A stretch of 64,000 nucleotides of DNA from a virus (Duplodnaviria; Heunggongvirae; Uroviricota; Caudoviricetes): positions 2,668-66,667 of the IMG/VR virus record IMGVR_UViG_3300010883_000008, one strand, 5' to 3'. This document shows positions 3,429-62,109 of the stretch, piece after piece; position 1 is the first letter of the stretch, and the number at the start of each line of letters is the position of its first letter. The notes under the pieces were generated by a model that searched no databases, had not been told where the DNA came from, and saw only the letters and a program-made list of their open reading frames with translations. A program made the translations under genes and the position numbers.

Positions 3429-3611
3429 TCAAACATCACTGCTGACAGGTTTTTCAACCAACTCCCCGCGTAATACTCGAATCGACGGATCAGCATCGAT
3501 ACCTAACTTAATGGTGTTTCCTCGTACTTTAGTCACGGTCACTATTACGGGACCGAGGGGGGTCTCAATCATCAGGCTTTCGCCGGGCTTCCGAGATAAA
3601 ATTAACGCCAT
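3429..3611 (-). CDS. csrA: CsrA/RsmA-family post-transcriptional regulator homologue
   Basis: Internal Met start at 3611 with a GGAGGA Shine-Dalgarno sequence 7 nt upstream. The 60-aa product, MALILSRKPGESLMIE..VIVTVTKVRGNTIKLGIDADPSIRVLRGEL, aligns along its length with E. coli CsrA ([47 protein letters not shown]). Confidence 0.75.
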   Translation of the reverse strand: MALILSRKPGESLMIETPLGPVIVTVTKVRGNTIKLGIDADPSIRVLRGELVEKPVSSDV

Positions 3612-3724
3612 GTCCAATCCTCCATGAAAATTACAACTACGTAGGCAACAACACCTATCGTTAAAGCCCCTGTGACCCATAGCAGGGTCGGCAGGGGGAT
3701 GCTAAAGATGAATCCTTCCATCAT
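3602..3724 (-). CDS. small single-pass membrane protein
   Basis: Internal start MMEGFIFSIPLPTLLWVTGALTIGVVAYVVVIFMEDWTWR, one hydrophobic helix. ATGA start/stop overlap with the upstream gene and an AGGAGA Shine-Dalgarno sequence. Its 3' end overlaps the csrA start. Confidence 0.4.
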   Translation of the reverse strand: MMEGFIFSIPLPTLLWVTGALTIGVVAYVVVIFMEDWTWR

Positions 3725-4615: not shown

Positions 4616-4927
4616 TCAGTCTTTCATCTTTTTGATTTGTTTGTTGTACTTCTCAGCCCAATCGTTGGGTTTTTCTTCCTCTTTGTCCCCGAGCAGTTCC
4701 CGGGGAGTCTTACCCTGTTCCGTGATCGTAGCGACCACCCCAAGACTTTTGCTCCGGGTTCCTCCGAGAACAACCGTTATGTAACCCTTCCTTTTGAGGT
4801 ACTGAACCGTTTGTTCTAAATCCGGGTCCCCGACCTTCAAGTCCAGATCCAGAGCAAGATCCCTGACTGCGATTGTGGACTCATCCGCATCGCGTATCAA
4901 CTTTAGTATTCGGTTCCATTGCAGCAT
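4616..4927 (-). CDS. hypothetical protein
   Basis: 103-aa ORF with a Lys-rich C terminus. Confidence 0.45.
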   Translation of the reverse strand: MLQWNRILKLIRDADESTIAVRDLALDLDLKVGDPDLEQTVQYLKRKGYITVVLGGTRSKSLGVVATITEQGKTPRELLGDKEEEKPNDWAEKYNKQIKKMKD

Positions 4928-5796: not shown

Positions 5797-6073
5797 TCTT
5801 ATTTTCCTCTTGAATAGTTCTCATTAGGTGAGCCGCAAACGACTTTTCGAGATCCCCCAAGGATTTCGCGTCTGAGGTCCAAACTTCTACGGTAGGGGAG
5901 TTTGGCCGAGTCTTATCATGTTCCCGAATCACGTGGAGTTTCTCCCCCTTCATGAACCGGTACATCTGGCCCGTCCGGCGATGCACGTCCTCGTTCATCG
6001 ATTTCACCGGAAATCCTAGATGGTCCTTTAACCATGCCACGAACATCGGTATCAAGCCTGCATCTAAGGTCAT
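5783..6073 (-). CDS. hypothetical protein (may be the 3' part of a frameshifted gene)
   Basis: 96-aa ORF overlapping ORF 5916-6284 by 158 nt in another frame. Its C-terminal part is protein-like. Confidence 0.35.
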   Translation of the reverse strand: MTLDAGLIPMFVAWLKDHLGFPVKSMNEDVHRRTGQMYRFMKGEKLHVIREHDKTRPNSPTVEVWTSDAKSLGDLEKSFAAHLMRTIQEENKNAPR

Positions 6074-6284
6074 CCAAGCGTTCCTTTAATATCACGGCGT
6101 CCAATTCTTCGCCGTTAGTTTCGCCACATAGGGCATTCTTTGCCAAGCGTACCAGTTCATAACTCAAGCTAGTACGAATCCCCGACTCCCGTTTTGCCGC
6201 GACAATTTCAAGCAAGTACTCAAGTACCCACTCGTCAGTCCGACGAAAGGTGATCTCCCGAGTTTGGTTCTTGCCCTTGGGCAC
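5916..6284 (-). CDS. hypothetical protein (N-terminal ~70 aa convincing, tail low-complexity)
   Basis: 122-aa ORF. Residues 1-70 (MPKGKNQTREITFRRTDEWVLEYLLEIVAAKRESG...) look genuine. The part overlapping ORF 5783-6073 turns Gly/Pro/Arg-rich. Confidence 0.35.
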   Translation of the reverse strand: MPKGKNQTREITFRRTDEWVLEYLLEIVAAKRESGIRTSLSYELVRLAKNALCGETNGEELDAVILKERLDDLRCRLDTDVRGMVKGPSRISGEIDERGRASPDGPDVPVHEGGETPRDSGT

Positions 6285-6444
6285 GGTGTCGCTCCAATCC
6301 GATTTTCAGTACTTCAACCGCAGCAGCACCTTGGGACAACGGAATGCCTTGGCGTTCCGCAATGTCCCGTAGTTGCTGGAGGGCATCGAAGATCCATAAA
6401 TCTTCCTTCGGCACCCAGATGGATAGTTTACGGCCTTTGATCAA
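6235..6444 (-). CDS. ribbon-helix-helix (CopG/Arc-like) DNA-binding protein, putative
   Basis: 69 aa. KLSIWVPKEDLWIFDALQQLRDIAERQGIPLSQGAAAVEVLKIGLE fits the RHH beta-strand, helix A, helix B pattern. It sits just upstream of the vWA/MoxR pair. Confidence 0.45.
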   Translation of the reverse strand: MIKGRKLSIWVPKEDLWIFDALQQLRDIAERQGIPLSQGAAAVEVLKIGLERHRAQGQEPNSGDHLSSD

Positions 6445-9263
6445 GATACACTCCGGATTACTTTCTGTAACAGTTTCCTCATGTCATTTACGAGTTGCCG
6501 TAAGTCGAGGAACTGTATGTAATGCTTGAACATGGACGACGATTTGAATCTCGTTATGGCTACCTGAACCACGTCCATTTCCTTTTCCAATTTCCGAACT
6601 TCGTCCCGAGTGGCACGGCGAGCAGTATCTCCACCATAGTCGTTGCCACAGGGGGCTCCGTCAGACAGCACCAGCATCAGACGATTCTCATTGTCGGTGT
6701 TCTCCTTGAACAGTCGACCGGCTTCCCGTATCGCCATGTGGTCATAGTTCTGACCACCGTCGCCGTACCCACCTATCGAGTAGACGTTCTTTTGTCGTTT
6801 GCCGTACAGGTACTTCATGTAGTTGTCGTCATGTCTGTTACACGAGGCATACGAGTAGATCTCAAGTTCGATCTTCGACACGTTAGCCAGAGCTTCGGCG
6901 AACAGGATAGCGATTTGCTTTGCCACCCCCGCTCGACCGTTCCAATCTTGGTAGGAACCCTTGCAGGTCCCCATCGATCCCGACTCATCCAAGAGCAGGC
7001 AGATTGCCAACCCTTTGGACGTGATCTTGGACGTGTTCTTGAACAGCCGTTTGGTGGAGCGGGCTCGTCCCAGTCGACGCCCGTCCAATCGACCCTCGAT
7101 CAGTTCTCGGTTGTCAACCAGTCTGTCCCCACGTCGGAAGGACAAGGCATTCTTGGTCCGGCCAATGAAGGGCTGTACCAATTTCTTCCCCGCCAAGTAG
7201 TCTCGTTTAGCGGACTCGTCCGGTCGTGGGTGAGATATGACAGTTCTTCGTCGAGTGTACTTGTCACACGGGCACGTTTCGGCCTCAACGAATTCCAGAC
7301 GTTCATCTTCGGCCTTAGCCAGTTCACAGGATTCCTCAAGATCCATCGTTCCCCCGTCAAAGGCTTCCATCATCCGAGCTAAGTCGATCAGCCCGAATCG
7401 TTCACCCTCACGGGATTTCTCCAAGGCGTCCGAGGCTTCCTTAAGGTCATCCAGCTTTTTCTCGTCCCGTTTGGCATCGGCCAACCGATCATCTTTCATG
7501 GCCTCCGTCAGATCGGAGAGATCCTTCAACTTTTCCAGGGCTTTCCGCATCCGTTCCCCCGTAGCTTCGATATCCTTTAGTAGAGCTTCCGTGTCGGTAT
7601 CGGTTTCCTTGGCGAGTCTGTGGTCATCCAGCCGCGTCAGGGTATCATCCATCTCGGCCTTCATCACATCGCCATCGTCCCGCCCGGCCAACTCCATCAG
7701 GAAGTCCCCGAAGTCTAGCTCGGGTTCGGGGAGTTCGGGTTCGCCTTCGCCTTCCGGCGTCGGGTGTTCCCCGCCCGTCGTTTCTTCCCCGCGTTCCGTT
7801 GTTTCTTCGTCAGACGTTTCGAGCGAGTCTTCTTTCGTTTCCCCGCTTCCGCCTGTAGTTGATGTTTCATCCGTTGGAAGTCCGTCACCCCCTGGCTCTC
7901 CGGGGCCACCCCCTCGTTCGGATCGACTGGGGTCGGAACCACCCCCGCCAGTTGCATCTGATCCTTCAGTTGATCTGCCGCTTCCGCCATCGTCAGAGGG
8001 TCCGGTGTCGACTCCATCGGTTTCTCCTTCTGGTGTCCCGGAGGAAGATCCACTGGGACCGTCCGGGGTACTTGATTTGCCATCGTCATCCCCGTCGCCT
8101 GCTCCGGGGTCATCGGAGGTTGGGGGCTCACCGGACCCATCGTCGCCAGCTTCGGGGGTTGACTCACTGTCCGACCCGTCTGAGTCCCCGTCACATTCAG
8201 CAGATCCACCTTCGGCGGATTCGTCGGAGGATTCGTCGGAGGTAGATTCTTCTCGTCCATCGTCAGGTTCCTTATCAGGTTCAGTGCAATCAGTTGCACT
8301 AGATTTTTCCTCGGCCCGTTTATCGGCCATTTCTTTTTTAACGTCCTCGATCATTTCGTCAACACGTTCATCGCCCAAGGCTTCACGCAACGCATCTTCA
8401 TCGTCCTTAGCAGCAAGTTTGTCGTAGATGTCCTGCATCCGGTTGAAGTACTCAACCAATCTGGCCCCCGCCATTTCCACGTCGTCCTCAGTCACCGGGG
8501 TGTGGGGTATGACACCCCGCAACTCGTCGAACGCACAGTCGCCTTTCACAGTCTTCCAAGTTTTCATCGCGGGGGATAAATGGTACGGGCACCGGATGGC
8601 TGTAAACATCAACGTGGTGAGTTTGTCTAGGTCCGTCAACTTGTCCCAGTTGGTCAACGATTCAAGGAATTTCTTGGCTTGGAAGATCACCCGTTTCGAC
8701 GCCTGTAGATACGGAGCATACCCCGGGCTGCGTTTACGGGCGAGGTTCTCGATGCGTTCGTCTTCAAGCAGGTTCTCCCACATGATCCGTTTGGGATCAG
8801 AGAGAGCTTTGGATTGCAGACGTAGGCCGAGCTTGCGAGTGGAGATTAGATGTTCCGTCTCATGGATACCTAACCCACAGTAGGCGTCCATCATTTCTTG
8901 ACCATCGGCCAAGTCATAGACGCTCGTGCCCAGGAAGATGAACGGTCCCTCCCATGGGTCCATTCTTTGCCATCCCGCCATGCCGGAAGCGGCTGTCCCG
9001 ATGGACGCCAGTTGGATGTTGGTCTTGGGGGGTGCCCCGTGGATCTTACAGATCGAAGCTACCGCATTGCGTATGCGGATAAGATCGAATACCTTTTGTT
9101 GAGCATCTTTGGCCTTGGTTCGGCCATAGCCCCACCCGCCTGAGGTCGAGGCGGATCGTAGAACTTCGTCCCGTTCAACTTCGGCGGCGGCGAGTTCCGA
9201 TATGAAGTCGTCTCCCTCAACCGTAAGTTCCAGGGGCTCGTATTCATGTGTCCAGTTTGGCAT
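6441..9263 (-). CDS. vWA-domain protein with N-terminal HExxH region and long acidic low-complexity linker (CobT-like / DUF2201-like MoxR partner)
   Basis: 940 aa. C-terminal von Willebrand A domain with MIDAS motif DESGS (LAICLLLDESGSMG). About 170 aa of D/E/S/G-rich sequence and a coiled coil. HETEH motif at about aa 150. Confidence 0.75.
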   Translation of the reverse strand: MPNWTHEYEPLELTVEGDDFISELAAAEVERDEVLRSASTSGGWGYGRTKAKDAQQKVFDLIRIRNAVASICKIHGAPPKTNIQLASIGTAASGMAGWQRMDPWEGPFIFLGTSVYDLADGQEMMDAYCGLGIHETEHLISTRKLGLRLQSKALSDPKRIMWENLLEDERIENLARKRSPGYAPYLQASKRVIFQAKKFLESLTNWDKLTDLDKLTTLMFTAIRCPYHLSPAMKTWKTVKGDCAFDELRGVIPHTPVTEDDVEMAGARLVEYFNRMQDIYDKLAAKDDEDALREALGDERVDEMIEDVKKEMADKRAEEKSSATDCTEPDKEPDDGREESTSDESSDESAEGGSAECDGDSDGSDSESTPEAGDDGSGEPPTSDDPGAGDGDDDGKSSTPDGPSGSSSGTPEGETDGVDTGPSDDGGSGRSTEGSDATGGGGSDPSRSERGGGPGEPGGDGLPTDETSTTGGSGETKEDSLETSDEETTERGEETTGGEHPTPEGEGEPELPEPELDFGDFLMELAGRDDGDVMKAEMDDTLTRLDDHRLAKETDTDTEALLKDIEATGERMRKALEKLKDLSDLTEAMKDDRLADAKRDEKKLDDLKEASDALEKSREGERFGLIDLARMMEAFDGGTMDLEESCELAKAEDERLEFVEAETCPCDKYTRRRTVISHPRPDESAKRDYLAGKKLVQPFIGRTKNALSFRRGDRLVDNRELIEGRLDGRRLGRARSTKRLFKNTSKITSKGLAICLLLDESGSMGTCKGSYQDWNGRAGVAKQIAILFAEALANVSKIELEIYSYASCNRHDDNYMKYLYGKRQKNVYSIGGYGDGGQNYDHMAIREAGRLFKENTDNENRLMLVLSDGAPCGNDYGGDTARRATRDEVRKLEKEMDVVQVAITRFKSSSMFKHYIQFLDLRQLVNDMRKLLQKVIRSVS
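8284..8299. repeat. palindrome family copy: GTGCAATCAGTTGCAC
   Basis: 16-bp inverted repeat inside the acidic region of the vWA gene. Confidence 0.85.
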
Positions 9264-9348: not shown

Positions 9349-10932
9349 TTATCCAATGTCACCCTTCTGGATGATTTGGAGGACTTTCGTGCGATCCGAT
9401 TCTTCCCCACCCTCGTCCGAGAAGTGGCAGAGGATTGAACCCCTACAGGCTAAGTCGAACCGCATACCATCCGCGAGCTTGCGTCCCGTTGCCAACAGCA
9501 TTCTCGTAGATATGAACTCGGGGAATTCTTGGTCCCCGCGAGTCAGTTCCCGCTGTCGTACGGCGATCTTCACTAGTCGAACCGCGTCCACCCGTTTCAG
9601 ACCTTTGCATCGTCCCGTCAGGATGGTCACTTCGTTGGCCTCGGGTGGGAAGAACATCTCGATGATGGTGGAGAAGCGATCTTTCAACGCCTTATCCAAT
9701 GCTTCCGTTCCCGTGTACTCCATGCCGATGTTCGCCGTAGCGGTGATGGAAACTCCCTCACCCATGTTAACTATCGACGCGTCGTCATGCTCGTCCAAAG
9801 CGATGTACCGTTGGCTGTCCAACGCGGGCAGTAAGATATTGAATGCGGCTGGTACGGCACGGGTCAACTCATCCAACATGATGATGCTGTTCCCGAGATC
9901 CCCCCGGTAGGCTTGCACGAATCGGGCATCCGATACATACGTCCCCGCCTCATTCAGTCCTACGTTTCCGATCAGCGAGGTTCGAGGCTCACTCATGGCA
10001 CCGCAGTTGAAGGCCGCTAACTCACGTTCAACCGCACGTGATACAAAGTGTAGCACCTGTGATTTACCTGACCCCGAAGGTCCCACCAGAAGCAAGTTCT
10101 CCCCTGGTGTCAAGATGGTGTAGCAGATCTCTTCCCAATCGTCCTTGGACACGAAGAACTCCGAAGGATGGGGTCGACGTATCGTCTTGTAGAGCGGTGT
10201 CGGTCGATCAGCCGCAAGTTCCTCCATCCGGGCTTTGACCTCATCGGTGGCCGACTTGGCGATTTCCGCAGGTTCCCCGAAGCCCTCTACTGGGTCGACC
10301 GGATCGACCGGGCTGGTAGGGGTCGGTGGCAGGAATTCTTCGTCGGTCGTGTCCTCCGGGGCATCCCCCGGACGAACCGCACTCGCTCCAGCATCCCGAA
10401 CTTCGGGTGATGCCGATGCCTTCTTGAGTCGTAGGGACGCTTGGCATTCAGCATATATGCGAGCCGGATTGAATGGGCGTTCTTTGGCCTCCAGACATGA
10501 CGTGTCCGGGTCCTTGCCGTCCAATAGCCACAGCAGGTTATGTAAGGACACATCTCCGATCCGAGGGGACACAGCCCCTAGAGAGTTCTCACCCTTAGGC
10601 AAGTTCAGCACCACTGCGTAGGTGAGAGGGCTGGATGTTCGCCAGGGGATAACCCCATCTGAATCGATCTCGACGCCCCCGCCCTCGGTCCAAGTGTTCA
10701 GATCCGTTCGGACCACTCGCTCATGGTCGCACTTGGATTCAAACTTGTACATCGCACAGTCGCAAACTGTCGCGTCGGGCGTGATAGATACGTTGGTAAG
10801 CAGTCTGGCAGTATTGCTCACGATTTGGAATACCTCAAATTGGTTTTCGTCCACTTTGAAGCCAATTAAGATAGCCTTGTCCGCCATAACATGATCTCCT
10901 GAAATTGGGGGTTCGTTCGTTTCGTCCAACAA
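9349..10932 (-). CDS. MoxR-family AAA+ ATPase (CobS-like)
   Basis: 527 aa. Walker A LLLVGPSGSGKSQ and Walker B IIMLDELTR. It sits immediately downstream of the vWA partner, the usual MoxR/CobS genetic coupling. Confidence 0.75.
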   Translation of the reverse strand: MLDETNEPPISGDHVMADKAILIGFKVDENQFEVFQIVSNTARLLTNVSITPDATVCDCAMYKFESKCDHERVVRTDLNTWTEGGGVEIDSDGVIPWRTSSPLTYAVVLNLPKGENSLGAVSPRIGDVSLHNLLWLLDGKDPDTSCLEAKERPFNPARIYAECQASLRLKKASASPEVRDAGASAVRPGDAPEDTTDEEFLPPTPTSPVDPVDPVEGFGEPAEIAKSATDEVKARMEELAADRPTPLYKTIRRPHPSEFFVSKDDWEEICYTILTPGENLLLVGPSGSGKSQVLHFVSRAVERELAAFNCGAMSEPRTSLIGNVGLNEAGTYVSDARFVQAYRGDLGNSIIMLDELTRAVPAAFNILLPALDSQRYIALDEHDDASIVNMGEGVSITATANIGMEYTGTEALDKALKDRFSTIIEMFFPPEANEVTILTGRCKGLKRVDAVRLVKIAVRQRELTRGDQEFPEFISTRMLLATGRKLADGMRFDLACRGSILCHFSDEGGEESDRTKVLQIIQKGDIG

Positions 10933-13247: not shown

Positions 13248-13904
13248 TTAGTCGGCGTCGGGCAGTCGGATATGGGTGATGGTCATCTCGATGTCATCGA
13301 TATCGATATCCAAGTCTTTGGCGATGCGTAGTTTCGCATCGTTAAGTTCCTGATCCGAGGGAGGTTCTTCTCCCCCCATCAAAGGTACGAGGTGTTCTTG
13401 GAAAGCCACTTCCATGGCAGCAGGATCAATGTCCTTCTTTTTGGTCCCCGGTTCCCCGTCCGCTTCCGAATCGCAGAACGGACAGTCACTTTCCCCGCAG
13501 GAACCAATCGGGGATTTTTCAGCTTTGCGAGGTTGTGCAATCGATTGCACTGGGATGTTGATCGGAGCTTTTCGCGGTTTGGGGTCGTTCCCCGTGATCT
13601 CGCGGTAGAATTGCATTGCCGTGGGGCGAGTCTGCAACATTCGCAACGCTGTGTTGATGCGTTCGTCAATAAGCAGCATCAAATCGAGGTCCTGGGGGGC
13701 ACGGATACCCGAGGCTAACAGTTCCTCGTATCGAGTGGAGTCTTCGTCCAGTCCTTCGATCAGGGAAGCTGTGTCCATTAGCCAGCCTGAGGCGAGTTCC
13801 GAATCGTGGGCTGACAGGGGTTCGTCAAACATGTTCATTTCTCCAGTGGGGTGACGTGTTTTTTCCAACGAAAGTAGTATCGACCATTCACTCGGGAATG
13901 TCAA
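13248..13904 (-). CDS. hypothetical protein
   Basis: 218-aa ORF. It contains a palindrome copy at 13535-13550. Confidence 0.45.
   Translation of the reverse strand: MTFPSEWSILLSLEKTRHPTGEMNMFDEPLSAHDSELASGWLMDTASLIEGLDEDSTRYEELLASGIRAPQDLDLMLLIDERINTALRMLQTRPTAMQFYREITGNDPKPRKAPINIPVQSIAQPRKAEKSPIGSCGESDCPFCDSEADGEPGTKKKDIDPAAMEVAFQEHLVPLMGGEEPPSDQELNDAKLRIAKDLDIDIDDIEMTITHIRLPDAD
13535..13550. repeat. palindrome family copy: GTGCAATCGATTGCAC (perfect)
   Basis: Perfect 16-bp palindrome inside the coding sequence. Confidence 0.9.
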
Positions 13905-18217: not shown

Positions 18218-19603
18218 TTAGCTCCGCATTTCTTCAAACTCCAGATCATCGTAAATAGCTCGACGTTTGTTCGCCATAGCCACGCAGACTCCCATCTGGA
18301 ATACAGGGTCCACTATTAACAATTCTCGTTTGTCCCCGAGCCTTTGAATTCGACCCACGGTCTGTTCAACGTCGGATCGGGGAGTACCAAAGAATAACGT
18401 ATCGAGGGTGGGTATGTCTGTTCCTTCGGACATCATTCCGTAAGTAGCTAAGACAATGTCGCACTCTTTGGCCGCATGTAACTGACTTTTCGTTAGTCGC
18501 TTGTTTCGAGGTTTCCCCGAGGCTGTGACTCCGTTAGGGACTGCCCCCACGTATAGTCCCATAGACCCCGTGTATCCAGCACGTCTGATCCGTTCCTGCA
18601 CGTCAACGCATTGGCTCACTCGATCCGAGCATAGGAGTACTCGTCTCCCCGTGCCAGAAGCCGCAACGATTTGCTCAGCTAACCAGCAGTTAAAGGGGAC
18701 GTTCTGTGCAATGGAGTTCACCATCTGAGCCATCAGCAGGGTGTTGCCCCGCTTGAACATGTGATCCGTAAGTGAGGTCTTCCACACAGGTTGGACGTAC
18801 TTCCCCGACAATCGTTCGGCGGTCATCTTGTGAACGATCTCACCTACATGCCAGTCCCAAATGCAGTCCATCCCGTCCTTTCGTCGCCATGTAGCGGAGA
18901 CTCCTAGACGTAAGTGCATAGGTAGACTTCTCAACACGTACTCAAACGTGTCAGCGGGATACCGGTGTCCTTCATCAGTAATCACCATCCCGAACTCGTT
19001 GTGCATCTCCTGTAGCAATGCCGCAGAGTCCCGCCTAGCATAGAGAGTCTGAGCCATTGCGGTGACCATATGCTTGCCTCGATAGTCCCAGTTATTCCCT
19101 TGGATGTGTCCCCCGTCAGCCTCAGGCCAAAACGTGCGTAAAGTCTCGTGCCATTGCTCCGCAAGGTCGTTCTTGTGTACGAGTACTAAGACGGGTTTAT
19201 CTAACTTCGAGGCAATGTCTAATCCCATCAAGGTCTTCCCTGAACCACATGGGGCTGACAAAAGACCTCCTAACCATCCCTTCTCAAAGTGAGTTACTAG
19301 TGCTTCCCGGGCCTGTTTCTGCCCTGATCTGTACCCCCAACTTTCTGGGAACCTGAGCTTCGGCCAGGACCTTGAGGTTCGGACAGTTCTGGTTACTAGC
19401 TGAAATCGTTTTCCATAGCGTTGTAGGCCCCATCTTCTCGGTACGCCAATATGGCTCTCTGACATTTCCCAAGGTTCCAGAAGGCGACCTTCCCCCACAA
19501 CCGCATCGGACATGAGGCGAAGGTCCATCTGAATCCGGTCCCACTCGACATGTTCGAGAGGTAGCCAGAGAAGTCTATCGAGATATGCTGTTGGTTTTGT
19601 CAT
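18218..19603 (-). CDS. superfamily 2 DEAD/DEAH-box DNA helicase
   Basis: 461 aa. Motif I LSAPCGSGKTLMG, motif II VITDEGHRY, with the helicase C-terminal region. Confidence 0.7.
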   Translation of the reverse strand: MTKPTAYLDRLLWLPLEHVEWDRIQMDLRLMSDAVVGEGRLLEPWEMSESHIGVPRRWGLQRYGKRFQLVTRTVRTSRSWPKLRFPESWGYRSGQKQAREALVTHFEKGWLGGLLSAPCGSGKTLMGLDIASKLDKPVLVLVHKNDLAEQWHETLRTFWPEADGGHIQGNNWDYRGKHMVTAMAQTLYARRDSAALLQEMHNEFGMVITDEGHRYPADTFEYVLRSLPMHLRLGVSATWRRKDGMDCIWDWHVGEIVHKMTAERLSGKYVQPVWKTSLTDHMFKRGNTLLMAQMVNSIAQNVPFNCWLAEQIVAASGTGRRVLLCSDRVSQCVDVQERIRRAGYTGSMGLYVGAVPNGVTASGKPRNKRLTKSQLHAAKECDIVLATYGMMSEGTDIPTLDTLFFGTPRSDVEQTVGRIQRLGDKRELLIVDPVFQMGVCVAMANKRRAIYDDLEFEEMRS

Positions 19604-19609
19604 GATCTA

Positions 19610-19626
19610 GTGCAATCCAGTTGCAC
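19610..19626. repeat. palindrome family copy (17-bp variant): GTGCAATCCAGTTGCAC
   Basis: Lies 6 nt upstream of the helicase ATG, in a 61-nt intergenic gap. No Shine-Dalgarno sequence is visible between it and the start codon. Confidence 0.8.
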
Positions 19627-19664
19627 AAACTCAAGTTAAGGTGATCTGGGAGTCCATCCCCCAG

Positions 19665-20322: not shown

Positions 20323-20844
20323 TCATTTGTAAACCTCCGAAAAAGAAAAAGATATATCGCCTTCATATTTTTTTTGAATGTGAATAGCGGCAATACCGTT
20401 TCCCATTCCCCATCCCAACTTACTTCCTGTTGCATAGTGTCGTATCTCTTTGATACCGCCATATTCATATATACTTCTAATTAATCCGTCGCTAAGAAAA
20501 AACTTCCAAGTTGGCATAAGCCAAACACTATTATCAGATAAAGTTAGTCCGTGCAAAATAAATTTTCTATACTTTGAAAATGGTGGATTTGTTATTATCC
20601 AATCAACCTTCTCATTGTAATTATAGAAATCTTTTCCCATAGAAATCTCACAAAAGGGTGAGCCTTCGGGCAAAAATTTATGTATATTGCCGATACCATA
20701 ACATGGTTCTAAAACTTTACCTTCGGGTTCAAACCACTTTATCATATCTTTTGCTACGATTTCGGGAGTCCAAGTTTCATCACCGCTCATTTGTAGTGGT
20801 CCTGGGATAGTTGAATAATTGCATCCACCACCGTTATTTCGCAA
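20323..20844 (-). CDS. N6-adenine DNA methyltransferase (gamma-class order, motif I before NPPF), orphan
   Basis: 173 aa. Motif I-like EPCYGIGNI, then ITNPPF. The whole ORF is visibly AT-rich (roughly 36% G+C by eye, the rest of the window about 55%). Confidence 0.6.
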   Translation of the reverse strand: MRNNGGGCNYSTIPGPLQMSGDETWTPEIVAKDMIKWFEPEGKVLEPCYGIGNIHKFLPEGSPFCEISMGKDFYNYNEKVDWIITNPPFSKYRKFILHGLTLSDNSVWLMPTWKFFLSDGLIRSIYEYGGIKEIRHYATGSKLGWGMGNGIAAIHIQKKYEGDISFSFSEVYK

Positions 20845-22756
20845 GTCCCCACGCGTCTACAATCAGAGGCTCAGTCCTGACAGGGACACGTAACTGTACA
20901 GTGTTTTCCATTACTTCCTGCATGGTCGCCGCGTGACGTGCGACGTGTTCTTCGGGAGCCTCGAAGATGATTTCATCATGCACAAAGTTCGACGGGAATA
21001 CCGTCTTCAACCATTCACCTTCCTCGATCCATTGTTCCCGGAGCTTAACCATGGACAACTGGATCAAGTTACAAGCTGATGCCTGAACCGGAAAGTTGAT
21101 GAACATGTTCAGTGAGTGCTTGAACGATTTGGCAATGTCCGACTTCGGAATACGCCGCTTCCGTCCAAAGATATCGGTGCAGACCCCCGACATTTTGAGG
21201 GCTTGCTCCATACGGATGTGCCAAGATCGGACGCCTTTGTACGCGTCGAAGAACTCGTTAATGACTTCCTGCCATTTCCGCATCGACAACTCAGGGTATT
21301 CCATGTGCATTCGTCGAGCGGTGGCTAGGTAGATCAGAGCGAAGTTCGCCATCTTACCGTTTTGCCGGTTCCCGCCGAGTGCTGGGATATTGTCCGTGGT
21401 CATCTGGTGAAGGTCCAGCCCGTGCCAAAAGGCGTCCAACTCCGGGTTTTTCAACAGATCCTCATTCTCCGCCACACCACATGCCGGACAAGAGTGCAGT
21501 ATCTTAGCAGATTGCCCTACGGTCCCACAGGCTCCACATTGGTAGTCAAGATAGGCTTTAAGGAACAAAGGATCTTGGGTGGTATGGGCACACACTCGTA
21601 ACTCAATCTGCGACAGGTCAGAAACGATCAGCTTCCGACCGGGGGCGGGTACTATGTTGTTACGAATGTTTAGGTGAGCGAATGCCTTCTCCCCCAGGGC
21701 GTTCTTGCGTTCATGTAACCATGCAGGAACATTCTGGAAGTTCGGCTTTTCACATCGAGTTCTCCCCGTCGAGGATACAAGCCAAAACGTGCAGTGTACT
21801 CGACCATTAGGGTCATCTATTGCCCATCGAGTGATAGGCTCAACGTAGGTGTTGATCATCTTGTGAGCAGTCCGGAACGTCCGGATGTCATCGCAAACTG
21901 GGTACTTCACCGCAAGCGTGTCCATCTGCTTGGCACCAACCGCGAGTCGCTTACCCGAGTCAGTCATGGGTATGCCCGCAGTATCGTACCCTAATTCCTC
22001 GAATAGTCGTCGAGCTACTTGGTCCCCGCTATTGAGGTTCAAAGGTCCAATCTCGTGGAAGATCTTATTTTTGATGTCCTCCCGAAGTTTTTGGAATCCC
22101 CGAAGCAGTTTCCGGGCTCCCGCAATCGACCAGCCAACACCGCAAGTCTCCATGTCCGCGAATAGCTTGGAGGAAGGCATCAGGATTTTCCAAAACAGCG
22201 GGCTCAATCCATCGGCTTCCAACCGAGGTTTGAGGAACTTCCACAGAAAGAACTCTTGTTGAGCATCGTCCGTAGCATATTCCGCAAACTCCTTCGAGTC
22301 CCCTCCGAAACCCCAGGCAGTCATGAAGTCCATCATCTGGACCCCGAAACCGTCACGCATAATCTTCTTGAGTCCCAACTCCCCCGGGCGACGGTTGTCG
22401 TCTAGAAGGTTGGTCGCAATCATCGGATCGCAGTAGTTCTTGGGGTATTCTACCGAGGTGATTACCCCCGCAGTCACGAGACCTTGCAAGTCGTACTTGC
22501 CGTTGAATGCCACCGCCTCCGACTCAGACGAAAAAAGCGTCTTGATGATTTTGGTATAAACCTCAGGACGCGGTTCGTAGAATGACGTGGTAGCTTTGTC
22601 CCCGGTTCCCGTCGCAAAACTGACCCCACCTAATTTGAAGTCTTTATCATGCAACGAGTCGTCAGGGTTATGCTCAATATCGAATGCATAACAGCCGTTC
22701 TGTATCGCATCTGATATAAATCCGTCAATGTCGACGGAGTGATGAACTGTAGGCAT
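20834..22756 (-). CDS. family A DNA polymerase
   Basis: 640 aa. Motif A DLSQIELRVCAH, motif B RQNGKMANFALIY, motif C VHDEIIFE. AGGAAGGA Shine-Dalgarno sequence upstream. Confidence 0.85.
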   Translation of the reverse strand: MPTVHHSVDIDGFISDAIQNGCYAFDIEHNPDDSLHDKDFKLGGVSFATGTGDKATTSFYEPRPEVYTKIIKTLFSSESEAVAFNGKYDLQGLVTAGVITSVEYPKNYCDPMIATNLLDDNRRPGELGLKKIMRDGFGVQMMDFMTAWGFGGDSKEFAEYATDDAQQEFFLWKFLKPRLEADGLSPLFWKILMPSSKLFADMETCGVGWSIAGARKLLRGFQKLREDIKNKIFHEIGPLNLNSGDQVARRLFEELGYDTAGIPMTDSGKRLAVGAKQMDTLAVKYPVCDDIRTFRTAHKMINTYVEPITRWAIDDPNGRVHCTFWLVSSTGRTRCEKPNFQNVPAWLHERKNALGEKAFAHLNIRNNIVPAPGRKLIVSDLSQIELRVCAHTTQDPLFLKAYLDYQCGACGTVGQSAKILHSCPACGVAENEDLLKNPELDAFWHGLDLHQMTTDNIPALGGNRQNGKMANFALIYLATARRMHMEYPELSMRKWQEVINEFFDAYKGVRSWHIRMEQALKMSGVCTDIFGRKRRIPKSDIAKSFKHSLNMFINFPVQASACNLIQLSMVKLREQWIEEGEWLKTVFPSNFVHDEIIFEAPEEHVARHAATMQEVMENTVQLRVPVRTEPLIVDAWGLAK

Positions 22757-23734: not shown

Positions 23735-24718
23735 TTAACAGAATGGTTTTACAAAGGACTCAAATTGGGGTCTATTCATATCCCCTAAGTCCACACTAAT
23801 GGGAGGCGTGAGACGACGAAGTGTACAAACCCCACCGAGGCGTGTCTTCGCTCGTTCCCAGCCCGTGTTCCCAGCCGAATCGTTATCATAGCAAAATACT
23901 ATGGTAGCGTCAAGCGAGGCTAATTGGTCCGCTTGGTACTCCGAAAGGTCGGCGTGCCAAGTACATACGCTGTCAAATCCTAAGTCCCAGCCCCAGGAGA
24001 CCGTCTTTGAAATATCGAAGTAACCTTCACTGACGAGGACTTTAGGATGACCTTGGCAATGATTGAGTCCTCCGAGAGATTTCCCCGCTGCGAACCCGAA
24101 GTAGTTATAGTACTTCGGGGTAACGTCACGGGTAAGACCTCGGCCAACGGCTCCGTAGAGGTTCCCACCCCCATCGAAAACGGGGAAGACGACTCGATTC
24201 TGACGGGGATCGTACCGCAAGTCAAATCGTAAAACATTCTCAGGCTCCATGTTACGTTCGTCAAACAGATAGGTAGAACTAGCCAAATGGCCGGTAGCTA
24301 AGGGGAATCTCTCGTACGACATCATGTCAGGGTTGAGAACAATAGGCTTGTCCACCGCCACGTCATAGACCCAGTCATCGAGACTTTCTCGGACCCCCGC
24401 CAACGTACTGAGCAGTGAGGGCTTGTCATCAATGAGTAGGTCCATAGACAACTTCCGCAATTCGTCGTTGTCAGTCAACTCAGCGTAGGAGTCTACTAGG
24501 TCAGCCAGCTTCCCCTGTTCCCCGCAAGCAAAGCACTTGAATAGGGAGGGGGTCTTGTCCACCACAATCGAACACCCCGGACGTGCATCGCTTCCGCCAT
24601 CATGCAACCAAGGAGCTAACGGACAATGTATCAGAACTTGCCCCTTGGAGTTAGCCTGCAAGTGAGTAGTGTCTACCCCCAACCGACTTAGTACGAGCTT
24701 CAAGCCATTCAGATTCAT
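23735..24718 (-). CDS. DNA primase, CHC2 zinc finger plus TOPRIM
   Basis: 327 aa. HCPLAPWLHDGGSDARPGCS...FKCFACGEQG (CHC2-type). TOPRIM residues VLVSEGYFD and IVFCYDNDSAGNTG. Confidence 0.65.
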   Translation of the reverse strand: MNLNGLKLVLSRLGVDTTHLQANSKGQVLIHCPLAPWLHDGGSDARPGCSIVVDKTPSLFKCFACGEQGKLADLVDSYAELTDNDELRKLSMDLLIDDKPSLLSTLAGVRESLDDWVYDVAVDKPIVLNPDMMSYERFPLATGHLASSTYLFDERNMEPENVLRFDLRYDPRQNRVVFPVFDGGGNLYGAVGRGLTRDVTPKYYNYFGFAAGKSLGGLNHCQGHPKVLVSEGYFDISKTVSWGWDLGFDSVCTWHADLSEYQADQLASLDATIVFCYDNDSAGNTGWERAKTRLGGVCTLRRLTPPISVDLGDMNRPQFESFVKPFC

Positions 24719-25323
24719 ACTGTATCCTCAGTTAATAGGTCCCCGGCGTCCCGCCTTGCATGGTGGTATCCTACGTACCAATCGATCCAGTTCCGTTCGG
24801 CCTCCTCGTAGTCATAGGGGTTTCCTTCTTCCCCGGCGTTTATCTTGATTTCAGTCATACGTTTCTGGTGCTTTCGGGTCGCCGCGTAATGCGTCCGTCC
24901 CAGCATATAGGGAGCAGCGGCTTCATCATCCTGGTATTTCCGGGCTGCGACGAAATACATCTCGCAACGACTTTTTGGATCGGAGTGGTATGCTTTGTAA
25001 ATTTGGCTGCGTACGGATTGTTCGCCCAGTGCAACTGATTGCACGCGAGGCGTCATCTTCGTCCGTTTTACCTTCACGGAAACCGTAGGGGATTCCGAGT
25101 TGCTCGTTGTAGAAGGTTTCTTCGAGGAAATCTCTTTCGGTAGCAGCCCCAATAGCTGCTCCGACAGACTCAGCGAGTTTTCGGAAGGCTTCGTCGCGAA
25201 GGGATTCGATGAGGGATTTACTGATTTGGACGGAGGGGGAGTACTTTCTACTGTCGTAGACATAGTTGCGGGGTCTGTGGCTTGCAGCAAGCGAGCAATC
25301 GTCTCCGATGGCGTTTCCGACAT
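24715..25323 (-). CDS. hypothetical protein with Ser/Thr/Pro-rich N terminus
   Basis: 202-aa ORF. It contains a palindrome copy at 25029-25044. Confidence 0.4.
   Translation of the reverse strand: MSETPSETIARLLQATDPATMSTTVESTPPPSKSVNPSSNPFATKPSENSLSLSEQLLGLLPKEISSKKPSTTSNSESPTVSVKVKRTKMTPRVQSVALGEQSVRSQIYKAYHSDPKSRCEMYFVAARKYQDDEAAAPYMLGRTHYAATRKHQKRMTEIKINAGEEGNPYDYEEAERNWIDWYVGYHHARRDAGDLLTEDTV
25029..25044. repeat. palindrome family copy: GTGCAACTGATTGCAC
   Basis: 16-bp inverted repeat identical to the copy at 2285. Confidence 0.85.
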
Positions 25324-30459: not shown

Positions 30460-31650
30460 CTACTTCTTAGATAGTTTGGCTTCTAAGGATTGGACGATCT
30501 GTCCAATGTTAATAGTGCTTCGGCGATGTTCCCCGAATTCCTTGTGAAGTGTTATCGAGCAGATGTCCCGCTTACTTCGGAACCCGTTCGTGTGAGAGTA
30601 CTGGTCCCGGGGAATTAGGGTCCGGAAACTTTCGATCACCTGCCCGCCAACGTCTACACGTTTTTGGTGGTGGATATGTCCAGTATACCAGTAGCGATGC
30701 TCACACCGACCGCACTCAATACGTTTATCTTCGGCCATGACTTTGTATAATTGTTCAGGTTTGCACTTATGACCGTGATGTACTCCAATGAAGTTGTTAC
30801 CGAACTCATGCCAGTGGAACCCATCAGGGCTCGTGTCAATAGTCACCCGGGGCTCATTCTCGTAAGCCGTCTCCATGGTTAGTCCCAAAAGCTGACTGGT
30901 TTGCTCGTCGTGGTTACCTATGGAGTTGATAACCCGAACCAGTTGGTGTTTCTGTAGGGCAGCTTCGATCATTCGCCGCATCAGACGGATACCCACCCGA
31001 GCTACTTTGGCCCAGCGAGTGTCAACGTCCAAAGAGTGCCCACTAGCTGCGGTCACATTGGCGGGAGTATCCGTATGGAACCAGTCTCCCAAATTGCAAA
31101 TCAGGGCTTCTTCCGTGTCGGGGGTTGCGGCCAAAACTTTCAAGAACCCTTCGGTCATTAAAGCCTCGGCAATGTCCAAATCCCAGTCAGCTTGTACTTC
31201 TTCATGCCAGCAATACAGCCCAATGTGTGCGTCACCTATGGGATAAACCGCCAATTCTTCCGAAGTCGAGTTTTGTGCAATCAGTTGCACTGGGGGGAGG
31301 GGAGTTAGTTCCTGACTGATCCCCGTGGCGAGATCCACAGCGAATTCTTTGAGTCGGTCAGAGTCGACGCTTGATTTGACCCACTGGAGTTTTTGCTCCC
31401 CGTCCGGGCCATAGAGGGTGGAGACTCCTTTTACAAAGTGAGATTCGGGTACTACCTTCGTCATGTCATGGTCAGGACTCCATCCCTGTAGCGAGGCCCT
31501 ACGGCGTACTCGTGAAAGAGTTTTAGTCACCGTATTCCGAGGGAGCTTTAATTTTCTAGCAATCTCAGCCTGTGAAGTTTCCCCCGACTCAAATAGTTCT
31601 ACAATCTTACGTTGAATATCCGTGTTGCAAAAGTCAACTAGTTTGGGCAT
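30460..31650 (-). CDS. HTH domain fused to calcineurin-like metallophosphoesterase (SbcD/Mre11-like motifs)
   Basis: 396 aa. N-terminal HTH (SQAEIARKLKLPRNTVTKTLSRV). Then GDAHIG, GDWFH, GNHDE, GVHHGH, GHIHH. Confidence 0.6.
   Translation of the reverse strand: MPKLVDFCNTDIQRKIVELFESGETSQAEIARKLKLPRNTVTKTLSRVRRRASLQGWSPDHDMTKVVPESHFVKGVSTLYGPDGEQKLQWVKSSVDSDRLKEFAVDLATGISQELTPLPPVQLIAQNSTSEELAVYPIGDAHIGLYCWHEEVQADWDLDIAEALMTEGFLKVLAATPDTEEALICNLGDWFHTDTPANVTAASGHSLDVDTRWAKVARVGIRLMRRMIEAALQKHQLVRVINSIGNHDEQTSQLLGLTMETAYENEPRVTIDTSPDGFHWHEFGNNFIGVHHGHKCKPEQLYKVMAEDKRIECGRCEHRYWYTGHIHHQKRVDVGGQVIESFRTLIPRDQYSHTNGFRSKRDICSITLHKEFGEHRRSTINIGQIVQSLEAKLSKK
31275..31290. repeat. palindrome family copy: GTGCAATCAGTTGCAC
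   Basis: 16-bp inverted repeat inside the phosphoesterase gene. Confidence 0.85.
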
Positions 31651-32318: not shown

Positions 32319-34255
32319 TATCCCACCTTAGTTTTAGTTAACTTGATCTCCGTCAATTGGGCAGTTATGTCAAATACTGGCATCAGAGCTACAGTGTTAC
32401 TCACCTCATCTGGAGTGAAAGTTAAAGGACTAATTCCTGACGCGTGTACGCCCGAATCTCGAATCTCTAAGTTCACATCCCCGTTAAGGTAGACGTTCTC
32501 AATCTCGATGGTGTAAGTATCCCCTATAGTTAGAGATAACTCTTGTGTGGCCTCAGTACTACCAAGCAAGGTCAATCCGTCCCCGGGGTTAGCCCTAGAA
32601 CCTAACGGGATCGTCCAAGGGACCGACTCAGTGGATTTAGGTACAGGATCTCGCAAGAGATTCGTAGGCGACGTGAACGTAGTCGAACCTATGTCCTCCA
32701 TCGAGTGAACGATTAGAGACATCTTAGCTTTTGGCCCCGGACTATAGTTGACTTTGATGTCCGTCAGCAGACCTGTGATCACGTCACCCTCAGGAGTGGT
32801 AAATGTAATCTTCTGACCCACATCCAAGCAAGTTACATAAGCACTCTCAACATCCCAGGCCTTACGGGCCATTTTCCATTCCTGAAAAGCTCGCACAGCA
32901 ACGTTGTAGGCAATCTCCCGATCAGGGATGTAAGTGTTCTCAATCTCCTCAGGAAGTATGCCCATCTCCGCTTGTAGATCCGGGTCATTAACGATAACCG
33001 CAAGTTGGTATTCAACCTTCTCCATTGCCGAAGCCGAAGGTGAACCTCCACCTTTACCGCCGCCACCTTGGCCCCCCGGACCACCTCCGGCATGCCCGGC
33101 CCCTCGACCGACACCCGCACCCATCTGACGCATGACAGCTTTGATCTGTTCAACGTCCTCTTTACCATGGGCGGCTTGGTGTTTCTCACCCAAGTTGTGG
33201 GCGTTCGCCAACTCAGGGTCTTGGGGGTTATCCAGAGCTTTGGCCGATACAGTTACTTCGTAGTCACCCTTCTGATAATGTGCCGAGTCATCATTGGGGT
33301 CGCCGTTAGTCATCCTTACCCCAGTCTCCCCCGAATTACCGTACATCAGTTCTTCGGTGTAGTCGGCGGGACCTGCATACTCACCGGCCCCTGTGATAAC
33401 AACGTCCAAGGCGTTCACCCTATCGTCGTTGATCTCCTTAAGCAGAATAGCGATCACCTTACGAGGTAAAGCATTGCCGATACAATGCTTCATTTTGGCC
33501 TTCTTCCCCTTCTTCTTAGTGTTCTTGGGGTTACTTTGACCACCTTGGGATTGTTGCTCTTTCTTCCCCCCAAGTTTGTCCTTCCATTCCCAGCAGCCCC
33601 GGACTTGGTATCGAGTAGGGCCTGATTGAATATCACGCTTCCGATTAGCAGACAGGACCGCCTCAGGGGGAAGAACCACGTCCACAGCAGAGTTATGGTC
33701 CTTCCAATCCTGAGTAACTAGGATACCGTTGCGATTGATGAAGAGATCCTGGCAAGCCGCCTGGGCAATCTTCATCATTTCTTGCATCATGTTCGTGCCG
33801 TTAGCGGGACCACATACTGTCTTAGTTGTGGGGGCAAACGCAGTCAAAGCCGGACTCAAGCCCCCCATCTCATGAGCAATGAGTTCCAGGGCATCCTTAG
33901 CGTTAGCCAAAGGCCCAGTAATGACAGGCTTCTTAGCTAGTCGAGACGCATACGAGTTGATGGAGAGTTGGACTTCATCATTCGAGAGTTCATCCTTCTC
34001 ATTGAAGTTCACAACCAGTCCGAAGACCCAACTGATCACCCCGTTAAAGCAGGACTCCACAATACCTTGGGATTCAAGGACCGAAGCGTCCAACTTGACC
34101 TGAAAAGGTTGCCACAAGAAGTTCTCGGGTTCCCACAGCCCATCCTCATTGGTGAGAACTACCGAAGCACTGTAGGACGACCGCATTGAAACGGTGACGT
34201 TCCAACTTACTAAGTTGTTAACCAGAGTCGAGGGGTAGGGTCCGTTACTAGCCAT
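32318..34255 (-). CDS. large Gly-rich protein, probable virion/structural component
   Basis: 645 aa. Gly run GAGHAGGGPGGQGGGGKGGG and Lys patch KNTKKKGKKAKMKH. No enzymatic motif recognised. Confidence 0.45.
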   Translation of the reverse strand: MASNGPYPSTLVNNLVSWNVTVSMRSSYSASVVLTNEDGLWEPENFLWQPFQVKLDASVLESQGIVESCFNGVISWVFGLVVNFNEKDELSNDEVQLSINSYASRLAKKPVITGPLANAKDALELIAHEMGGLSPALTAFAPTTKTVCGPANGTNMMQEMMKIAQAACQDLFINRNGILVTQDWKDHNSAVDVVLPPEAVLSANRKRDIQSGPTRYQVRGCWEWKDKLGGKKEQQSQGGQSNPKNTKKKGKKAKMKHCIGNALPRKVIAILLKEINDDRVNALDVVITGAGEYAGPADYTEELMYGNSGETGVRMTNGDPNDDSAHYQKGDYEVTVSAKALDNPQDPELANAHNLGEKHQAAHGKEDVEQIKAVMRQMGAGVGRGAGHAGGGPGGQGGGGKGGGSPSASAMEKVEYQLAVIVNDPDLQAEMGILPEEIENTYIPDREIAYNVAVRAFQEWKMARKAWDVESAYVTCLDVGQKITFTTPEGDVITGLLTDIKVNYSPGPKAKMSLIVHSMEDIGSTTFTSPTNLLRDPVPKSTESVPWTIPLGSRANPGDGLTLLGSTEATQELSLTIGDTYTIEIENVYLNGDVNLEIRDSGVHASGISPLTFTPDEVSNTVALMPVFDITAQLTEIKLTKTKVG

Positions 34256-37471: not shown

Positions 37472-37766
37472 ATCTGGCTAGGTTTATGAACTTCCGCTCG
37501 GCACTTACGTTACATTTGCAGATTCCACAATGAGCCTCAATGCCTTTCCCTTTCGAGTAGTAGCATTTAGCACACAGCCGGACTCGGGTCTCGAACCGTT
37601 CCCGGGTGACCCCTTTGCCAAAGGCCAGAGCCATGGCTACGGATAGGATCTTCCCGAAAACTGATTCGTTAAACCATCGTCCCACAGGGGCAGCCCAACC
37701 TTTATCGTTCAAACACGAAGCTCTCGATATCGTGATCGCCCGGAAAAATGTCCATATTGACTTCAC
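37404..37766 (-). CDS. small Cys-rich protein (weak)
   Basis: 120 aa. CAKCYYSKGKGIEAHCGICKCN...GCHH. It overlaps the PhyH gene by 68 nt. Confidence 0.3.
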   Translation of the reverse strand: MKSIWTFFRAITISRASCLNDKGWAAPVGRWFNESVFGKILSVAMALAFGKGVTRERFETRVRLCAKCYYSKGKGIEAHCGICKCNVSAERKFINLARFEETEQYGCHHPEGSVWKKNDV

Positions 37767-48104: not shown

Positions 48105-48126
48105 CCAGTGCAATCGATTGCACTGG
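48105..48126. repeat. palindrome family copy, extended perfect 22-bp form: CCAGTGCAATCGATTGCACTGG
   Basis: Perfect 22-bp palindrome in a 51-nt intergenic gap. Confidence 0.9.
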
Positions 48127-50607: not shown

Positions 50608-50623
50608 GTGCAATCAATTGCAC
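50608..50623. repeat. palindrome family copy: GTGCAATCAATTGCAC
   Basis: Lies in a 29-nt intergenic gap. Confidence 0.85.
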
Positions 50624-62107: not shown

Positions 62108-62109
62108 GT

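Follow-up and report, generated by a model that had tools for sequence, protein, structure and literature searches.

Cluster A mycobacteriophages carry 20-30 repressor sites throughout their genomes that block transcript elongation, and the consensus of these sites co-varies with the repressor across subclusters (PMC6550527, PMC9283540). The KorB protein of RK2 acts from distal OB sites (PMC11790492). DNA uptake sequences are spaced more evenly than at random, are common within genes, in preferred reading frames, exist in lineage-specific versions and arise by mutation and recombination, not by transposition (PMC2817400). Here we describe a family of palindromes with likenesses to these systems in a 64,000-nucleotide stretch of DNA from an uncultured tailed phage (positions 2,668 to 66,667 of IMG/VR record IMGVR_UViG_3300010883_000008; hereafter, the window). 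The window holds 12 perfect and two near-perfect copies of GTGCAA-N4-TTGCAC, about one every 5.5 kb and at near-regular intervals. The reading that we favor, at a probability of roughly 45%, is that these palindromes serve as operator-like binding sites of a symmetric protein, one with a task that calls for sites across the whole genome. They are best filed as a dispersed operator-type site family with a reproducibly regular spacing.

The family stands well above chance. With up to two mismatches allowed, GTGCAATNNNTTGCAC finds 15 sites in the window against 1.1 ± 1.3 expected, and the core in the form TGCAA-N3-7-TTGCA occurs exactly 12 times against 0.19 expected. The consensus is YWGTGCAAY-NN-RTTGCACWR, built around the core TGCAA-N4-TTGCA, and the palindromes measure 16-20 bp. 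No significant orientation bias was seen in the centres or flanks of the sites. Half-sites outside the palindromes are neither enriched nor clustered (7 and 11 seen versus 12-13 expected); the whole palindrome is therefore the unit, and a Chi-like half-site or an iteron cluster is ruled out. The dominant property of the family, which the first-pass annotation of this DNA had not recorded, is the near-regular spacing. The perfect copies lie at 2286, 8285, 13536, 19611, 25030, 31276, 38518, 42501, 48109, 50609, 56115 and 62884, and the coefficient of variation (CV) of their gaps, 0.238, was reached by none of 200,000 random placements.

Eight of the 14 copies lie inside open reading frames (ORFs), namely those at 8284, 13535, 25029, 31275, 35363, 38517, 42500 and 62883. 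Seven of these eight share the frame xTG-CAA-nnn-nTT-GCA, which reads V-Q-x-I-A; the remaining two frames would encode Cys. To judge from the sequence, intragenic copies with such a frame preference are the pattern expected of a DNA motif imposed on coding sequence. Another five to six copies fall within the approximately 3% of the window that is intergenic (a figure derived from the ORF map), and several of the larger intergenic gaps (29-89 nt) hold a copy, as though room had been made for it. Short gaps and the one tolerated frame are the cheapest places for a 16-bp palindrome, and this probably accounts for the copies being there.

Comparison with relatives, that is, with syntenic IMG/VR contigs recovered by protein-anchored searches at 35-70% amino-acid identity, extends these observations. 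In many relatives the arm-N4-arm design is repeated more densely: TGCAA(A/T)CG(A/T)TTGCA is present 14 times in 20 kb of L001, an ACGT-centred form 7-8 times in L142 and a GCGC-centred form 9-10 times in L144. Across lineages with TGCAA arms the centres are TCGA, ACGT, GCGC, TCGC and ACGC, and among the relatives at large the self-complementary NCGN centres include TCGA, ACGT, GCGC and CCGG. The arms vary as well. Two relatives have TCCAA-N4-TTGGA (eight copies in L138, four in L139), L140 has CCGCACACGTGTGCGG, with a GCACAC arm, and L275 has three copies of TCTCCTAA-NN-TTAGGAGA (TCCTAA-NN-TTAGGA) 6-7 kb apart. In the relatives more than 80% of copies fall inside genes, in any of the three frames, with the frame preferred in the window again the favoured one (22 of 34). 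Gaps were over-regular in each of the eight relatives' loci tested (CV 0.22-0.57, P 0.0008 to 0.05). The positions themselves mostly turn over between relatives, with two retained: the copy in a GT4-like glycosyltransferase gene, kept in L013, and the copy upstream of a helicase gene, kept in L002. In the former case the palindrome at 62883 and its L013 counterpart are identical at 29 of 31 nt, and the surrounding DNA is 63% identical. One could envision that these phages re-create sites as their genes diverge.

The motif is not confined to the syntenic set. A pattern scan found it repeated in contigs, ranging in GC content from 0.38 to 0.66, that have few or no detectable proteins in common with the window; contig c47159, for example, has only two jackhmmer-level matches to window proteins. 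In some unrelated viral and bacterial contigs, two to four copies are packed into tight clusters within 25-270 bp (L056, 1417-1696; L086, 3681-3768; L190, 1576-1612). This is the classical operator-array arrangement, unlike the dispersed layout of the phage clade considered here.

These properties suggest that each copy is a duplex-DNA site for a sequence-specific protein with two-fold symmetry. The reasons are the self-complementary centres, the enrichment of the whole palindrome, the indifference to gene boundaries, the use of all frames and the preference for the cheapest one. Self-complementary centres suit a duplex read by a symmetric dimer and would be senseless in the loop of a hairpin, which argues against an RNA element. 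We infer further that the set works through its coverage of the genome and not through control of particular genes. By analogy with described systems, its function would be transcriptional roadblocking rather than genome organisation, nuclease control or modification. Like the stoperators of L5 and Bxb1, the family amounts to tens of copies of one short motif across a phage genome, most of them off promoters, with a consensus that differs among related phages. All genes in the window run in the same direction, and each occupied site might thus act as an operator or a roadblock. A single protein could in that way damp or shut off transcription across the entire genome, segment by segment, each segment being at most 5.5 kb long, in the manner of stoperators or KorB OB sites.

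The protein that reads the palindromes could be phage-encoded, or it could be a host regulator of the LacI/GalR or PadR type. On the phage side, a weak candidate is a putative pair of ribbon-helix-helix (RHH) paralogues, recognized by their sequence pattern and encoded by adjacent small ORFs on the minus strand (6235-6444 and 5916-6284). The pair is conserved downstream of a von Willebrand factor A (vWA)-like gene in the four lineages recovered, a sample in which any association with the motif is confounded by phylogeny; a search for further lineages recruited none. The N-terminal strand of the product of ORF 6235-6444 is near-identical in two TGCAA phages (RKLSIWVP and RRLCVWIP) and reads QEIKIRLN in a TCCTA lineage and DHVSIWFA in a motif-less one. 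Its AlphaFold model has an extended N-terminus followed by two helices, and the top fold matches are all RHH proteins (CdbA, TraM, NikR and the pCXC100 ParB). Two other products were considered as readers and rejected. The recognition-helix residues of the helix-turn-helix in the small terminase (TerS) do not co-vary with motif type, and the putative recognition helix of a winged-helix-like protein (ORF 4616-4927, with no homologue besides itself at the 90%-cluster level) differs between two TGCAA phages.

Several points weigh against operator-like sites with a genome-wide role. Stoperators are 13-bp, asymmetric, oriented with transcription and mainly intergenic, whereas the sites described here are symmetric, mostly intragenic and regularly spaced; to our knowledge, regular spacing has not been documented for stoperators or OB sites. 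Stoperators are, moreover, read by the known monomeric immunity repressor of temperate phages, whereas the window yielded neither a repressor nor an integrase, nor was an integrase or immunity repressor seen in about 70 kb overall, and lysogenic silencing is left without direct support. A lytic phage would pay a high price for roadblocks within essential genes. No motif was detected in the close relatives L005-L008, L135 and L137, even by fuzzy and Markov-based word searches, and a search of motif-less relatives for a hidden asymmetric motif gave nothing above noise. Scans of nearly all window ORFs against Pfam, PHROG and NCBIfam revealed no LacI, PadR, XRE or other classical DNA-binding domain save the TerS helix-turn-helix and a ParB-like protein. 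When all window proteins and de novo clusters were profiled for presence and absence, no gene in the TerL or replication-gene loci tracked motif type. As for the RHH candidate, its fold match is not significant (Foldseek E ≥ 0.66), and no palindrome adjoins its own genes.

The ParB-like protein (61361-62107), encoded just upstream of the TerS gene, deserves separate consideration. It matches Pfam ParB_N at 30.5 bits (cut-off 26.3) and contains the motif GEHRWRV; its matches among PDB entries are Noc, Spo0J and ParB (E from 4e-9 to 1e-6), the best being to Noc and reaching the helix-turn-helix region, and Foldseek places its model (pLDDT 64) closest to RK2 KorB, Noc and ParB. A protein of the ParB/KorB/Noc family might load at the palindromes as at parS or OB sites, slide and coat the genome. 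The sites known for KorB-OB, ParB-parS and Noc-NBS are likewise dispersed palindromes of 13-16 bp that act over kilobases, and sliding on that scale would explain regular spacing on the same scale (PMC11790492). Most relatives have a homologue, as does the distant contig 3300032155_000026, which bears the motif. In spite of these parallels we consider such loading improbable. Unlike its counterparts in the KorB, ParB and Noc systems, the phage protein does not track the motif: its gene is present in the motif-less relatives L135-L137, and searches upstream of TerL turned up no copy of it in motif-rich L144 (10 kb) or in L140 (4.5 kb). Where it aligns with the recognition helix of Noc, the protein is acidic (FENETLMDKQL), and TGCAA phages do not conserve this stretch. 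Pfam and PHROG scans detected no ParA or other Walker-type partition ATPase among the ORFs of the window, which covers about two thirds of the genome. The lack of co-occurrence with the motif and the acidic helix region led us to reject the protein as the main reader candidate.

Its neighbourhood points elsewhere. Phage ParBs that lack a DNA-binding domain activate thymine dioxygenases, and the genes that accompany them (glycosyltransferase, radical SAM, epimerase, aminotransferase, terminase) match those found here (PMC13229309). Next to the terminase genes, at 61361-64000 and in the flanking contig L272, lies a hypermodification-like cluster encoding short-chain dehydrogenase (SDR), NAD-epimerase, DegT aminotransferase, radical SAM, GT4-like and ParB-like proteins; no TET/JBP domain was detected. 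We provisionally assign the ParB-like protein to this DNA-modification module. Elsewhere in the window, ORF 36701-37471 shows oxygenase-like HxD...H motifs by eye. A small minus-strand ORF (20323-20844) has, again by eye, EPxxGxG and NPPF motifs typical of N6-adenine/N4-cytosine methyltransferases; it gave no family match and no homologue in the relatives examined. In L144 (7027-9327) the ParB/glycosyltransferase module is replaced, directly upstream of TerS, by the 7-deazaguanine pathway genes QueC, QueD (PTPS), a QueE-like radical SAM gene and FolE (GTP cyclohydrolase I), together with a gene for a DUF6884 protein.

It is worth considering, then, whether the palindrome is itself the target of sequence-specific hypermodification, modified thymines or guanines within it being the functional mark. 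The terminase-proximal enzymes, further glycosyl- and methyltransferases and the oxygenase-like ORF in the window and its 3.3-kb extension would provide the means, as would the 7-deazaguanine genes of L144, and phage thymine dioxygenases can be sequence-specific, some perhaps needing longer contexts (PMC13229309). We nonetheless hold this to be highly unlikely. The known specificities extend over 2-3 nt, the modification genes differ among phages that share the motif (the ParB/glycosyltransferase module in some, 7-deazaguanine genes in L144), nothing ties the enzymes to the palindrome, and modification alone leaves the regular spacing unexplained.

The same palindrome is found in bacteria. Operators of the LacI/GalR family have the generic form TGNAANCGNTTNCA, and the PurR box has the core GCAAACGTTTGC. 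The phage core presumably fits the former, and we take the ACGT-centred form of L104, L142, L002 and L133 to contain the latter. In general layout the phage sites resemble the 14-16 bp palindromes (TGNAA-NCGN-TTNCA) of the PurR box, cre and CytR operators. The relatives, with their NCGN centres, fit the LacI-type form with its central CG strongly; in the window a central CG is present in only four of the 12 perfect copies, the remainder having CA/TG and one of them an extra central base. A scan of GTDB genomes for the exact 16-mer returned at least 120 loci. One, in a Rhizobiales genome, has two copies between a divergent LacI-family regulator gene and an ABC binding-protein gene; another, in Exiguobacterium, has two copies upstream of a maltodextrin glucosidase gene. 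At least 15 among the 120 matches listed are from Reyranellaceae (GC 0.65-0.69; L159, L208, L259, L261, L172, L214, L220, L235, L181, L262, L266, L269, L257, L205 and L268), where the palindrome has CG...CG flanks, usually as CGTGCAATCGATTGCACG, and stands by ordinary chromosomal genes. The CG-flanked TCGA form is also the repeated motif of phage contig 3300032155_000026 (GC 0.64). The motif may be chromosome-wide in Reyranellaceae. Given the flanking genes, prophages are not supported as the carriers of the Reyranella sites, and at L257, where two copies precede a umuD-like gene, a CI-like repressor was rejected after its N-terminal extension proved to be an ORF-calling artefact, the protein being UmuD-like. 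In Vibrio cholerae, the ChIP-seq consensus of AphA, a regulator of the PadR family, is ATGCAA-N4-TTGCAT (PMC6855506), the core of which is identical to that of the phage palindrome. Since bacteria use the sequence, a host-encoded reader, or a motif common to host and phage, is conceivable.

The phage might accordingly display high-affinity operators for a host regulator, of the LacI/GalR (PurR-, CytR- or CcpA-like) or PadR type, as decoys or sensors. Once replicated, hundreds to thousands of sites could titrate the regulator and de-repress its regulon, nucleotide supply being one example; alternatively, the sites could couple phage transcription to the metabolic state of the host. A widely available reader is made plausible by the range of base composition over which the motif occurs and by the absence of detectable shared proteins from some of the contigs. 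The proximity of the exact 16-mer to a LacI-family regulator gene in bacteria, the flanks that Reyranellaceae share with a GC-rich phage contig and the failure to find a phage-encoded reader point the same way. We view this explanation as unlikely, if far from negligible. Operators of the LacI/GalR family and AphA lie in the promoters of a regulon, whereas the phage sites are spread evenly through coding DNA, and the window encodes no PF00356 or Peripla_BP protein, hence no such regulator of its own. Close relatives whose TerL proteins are 55-70% identical have different arms or no motif, which a co-evolving phage protein explains more easily. Titration does not predict regular spacing, and occupied intragenic sites would block the phage's own transcription.

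A different use of a sequence common to phage and bacterium would be as a mark of self, akin to uptake sequences or Chi. If the machine concerned (a nuclease-helicase halted by the tag, or a recombination or packaging apparatus) can act on DNA anywhere, a tag would be required every few kilobases, and palindromy would make that tag readable from either direction. The uptake signals (USS and DUS) of Pasteurellaceae and Neisseriaceae show the same over-even spacing, reading-frame preference and lineage-specific versions as the phage sites (PMC2817400). The phage encodes a RecB/Cas4-like exonuclease, a helicase, a UvsX-like recombinase, an SbcD-like nuclease and RusA, and the motif is common to Reyranellaceae chromosomes and a GC-matched phage contig. 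Set against this, USS and DUS are 9-12 nt long, not palindromic and located on the chromosomes of naturally competent bacteria, and uptake of this kind is not known for these phages; the uptake and Chi sequences described so far are short and lack symmetry, and half-sites are not enriched here. Relatives that lack the motif have the same nuclease and recombinase genes, and no mechanism is known. A mark of this kind thus appears quite unlikely. In a broader formulation, which we judge unlikely, the palindrome would be a regularly spaced, direction-independent tag of phages and some bacteria (Reyranellaceae), read by a nuclease-helicase, by a packaging or condensation factor, or through ParB-activated hypermodification writing landmarks similar to base J. 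Were this so, related phages could use their lineage-specific versions to distinguish self from foreign DNA.

The palindromes had first attracted attention for their proximity to translation starts. The first-pass annotation proposed that copies sit where ribosome-binding or activator sites belong, either replacing the Shine-Dalgarno sequence or, folded into hairpins, occluding starts or serving as RNase III targets, with one copy acting as a class I activator site. The observations behind the proposal are largely sound. The copy at 19610-19626 (GTGCAATCCAGTTGCAC, 17 nt long with a centre of 5 nt instead of 4) is intergenic and ends exactly 6 nt before the helicase ATG at 19603 on the minus strand, as had been reported; the placement recurs in L002, where a copy lies 5 nt before the helicase ATG. 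Elsewhere the proximity holds and the distances need slight revision, by 1-4 nt. The copy at 50608-50623 takes up most of a 29-nt intergenic gap and ends 9 nt, not 10, before the ATG at 50598. The copy at 42500-42515 occupies the last codons of ORF 42489-42872 (V-V-Q-S-I-A-P-T-C-stop) and ends 17 nt, not 18, before the ATG at 42482 of a 976-amino-acid ORF, the supposed fibre gene. At 48105-48126 a 22-bp perfect palindrome, CCAGTGCAATCGATTGCACTGG, lies between genes, 5 nt past the upstream stop, and ends 28 nt before the ATG at 48076; its 16-mer core (48108-48123) ends 31 nt before that ATG, as against the 32 nt given earlier. It is also correct that no Shine-Dalgarno sequence is left at 19603, 50598 and 42482: the upstream 25 nt contain no GGAG, GAGG, AGGA or AAGG, a type of 4-mer found upstream of 40 of the 73 window ORFs versus a background of 22%. 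Gene 48076 does have a GGAG between palindrome and ATG.

The interpretation fares less well. The spacing is genome-wide and not set by gene starts, and the majority of copies, here and in the relatives, lie within genes. Occlusion of the start is contradicted by stems of 6 bp that leave the AUG unpaired, and the three translation-start contexts fold no better than shuffled sequences (z = -0.27, +0.45 and -0.88). Stems reach at most 9 bp, at 48105-48126, or 14 bp with interruptions, around 56114, with z = -2.0 for the 22-bp copy and -4.0 for the 56114 context, the other contexts being unremarkable. RNase III needs a duplex of about 20 bp, some two helical turns of double-stranded RNA, and the stems fall far below this. 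No Rfam family matches at the copies, and in a test for intrinsic terminators they lacked U-tracts, only 48126-48105 being flagged, owing to a weak T-rich tail. A strong terminator-like hairpin was seen elsewhere, at 53425-53392 on the minus strand, with a 14-bp stem and a T-run directly after a conserved capsid-like gene (53462-54481); ordinary intrinsic terminators thus seem to be in use in this phage.

At the DNA level, the operator half of the proposal is upheld by the perfect palindromes, by the self-complementary centres of the relatives and by the enrichment of the whole unit; activator placement is not. The geometry of the putative class I site is as described: a promoter-like TTGACA-16-TAAGAT lies downstream of copy 56114-56129 (at 56091-56064, minus strand), and transcription from it would start about 64.5 nt beyond the centre of the palindrome. 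That promoter is a pattern match only, of a kind that occurs at a background-like frequency (27 in the 20 kb concerned versus 16.6 ± 4.5 expected). The identical TTGACA-16-TAAGAT occurs twice on the minus strand 278 nt apart, at 56369-56342 within ORF 56133-57053 and at 56091-56064 in the gap after that ORF. The TTGACA that follows the 62883 copy is not conserved in L013. Taken as a whole, action at starts and promoters seems very unlikely as the role of the family. The three starts at 19603, 50598 and 42482 probably adjoin copies because placement there is cheap, any effect on translation being secondary. A local side effect on these three genes is possible, and the copies near them are not evidence of unusual translation initiation.

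The remaining copies illustrate the variety of contexts into which the palindrome is fitted. Among the intragenic ones, that at 8284-8299 (GTGCAATCAGTTGCAC), inside the 940-amino-acid vWA-like ORF 6441-9263, is the only one in a different reading frame; that at 13535-13550 (GTGCAATCGATTGCAC) codes for P-V-Q-S-I-A-Q within ORF 13248-13904; and those at 25029-25044 and 38517-38532 are in ORFs 24715-25323 and 37702-39078. The copy at 31275-31290 falls inside the SbcD-like exonuclease gene (30460-31650) and is truly intragenic, since the match to PHROG 704 covers residues 14-383 of the protein. A near-copy with one mismatch (GTGCAATCAAATGCAC, 35363-35378), in a glycosyltransferase gene (34248-36026) whose family match likewise extends across the site, fills the longest gap between perfect copies. 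The copy at 62883-62898, in the GT4-like gene 62110-63477, occupies the same codon positions in L013. Outside genes, the copy at 2285-2300 (GTGCAACTGATTGCAC, with perfect arms) is in a stretch without a convincing ORF and, read in the coding direction, shortly precedes a tRNA-like match. The second near-copy, at 51570-51585 (GGGCAATTGGTTGCAC), adjoins the stop of ORF 51585-51872, with a GTG start at 51541 following 29 nt later. The copy at 56114-56129 is 4 nt past the stop of ORF 56133-57053, and its flanks extend it into the interrupted 14-bp hairpin.

All substantial ORFs of the window are on the minus strand. PHROG and Pfam scans identified a large terminase (TerL) of the lambda-GpA type (58994-60697), a portal (57056-58993), a tape-measure protein (42875-46570), DNA polymerase A (20834-22756) and a second helicase (18218-19603), besides a primase, a DnaB-like helicase, a DnaC-like loader, a UvsX-like recombinase, Cas4/RecB-like and SbcD-like exonucleases, RusA and many sugar-modifying enzymes. 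A MoxR/CbbQ-type AAA ATPase gene (9349-10932, minus strand) is followed by the 940-amino-acid ORF, which has a weak CobT/vWA C-terminus, and the pair is kept in every relative whose sequence covers that region. The small genes at the window's distal end include one for a homologue of the CsrA family of RNA-binding proteins (3429-3680, minus strand; Pfam CsrA, 51.7 bits). The tRNA-like match (RF00005, 1906-2059, minus strand; 33 bits, E = 6e-5) spans 154 nt against a model of 71 nt, suggestive of a tRNA that carries an insert of about 80 nt; it escaped both ARAGORN and the Rfam gathering run. A second T-arm-like sequence, GGTTCGATACC, lies nearby at 2155-2165.

Megablast against phage records gave no nucleotide match in cultured phages, and TerL is at most 25% identical to that of any cultured phage, which leaves the window with no close cultured relative. 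Identical proteins are found on short contigs of JGI and ENA metagenomes. The window could be extended by 3.3 kb on one side (L272, beyond position 64000) and by 2.2 kb on the other; a scan with the 940-amino-acid protein gave no further extension. The cluster record lists a 99-kb contig; about two thirds of an uncultured siphovirus-like genome are thus contained in the window.

If the palindromes are indeed operator-like sites that act through genome coverage, a whole clade of uncultured phages of about 60-100 kb, sampled from the sea and other environments, has one symmetric protein-binding site distributed through its coding DNA in near-regular fashion, and the copies next to start codons are the visible tip of a system that operates at the DNA level. 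Such a layout makes a mechanism of genome-wide control or organisation directly testable, with the lineage-specific versions as ready-made specificity controls. Motif type and density could also help to classify these phages and perhaps to link them to hosts, given that Reyranellaceae share the CG-flanked TCGA form with a phage contig of matching GC content.

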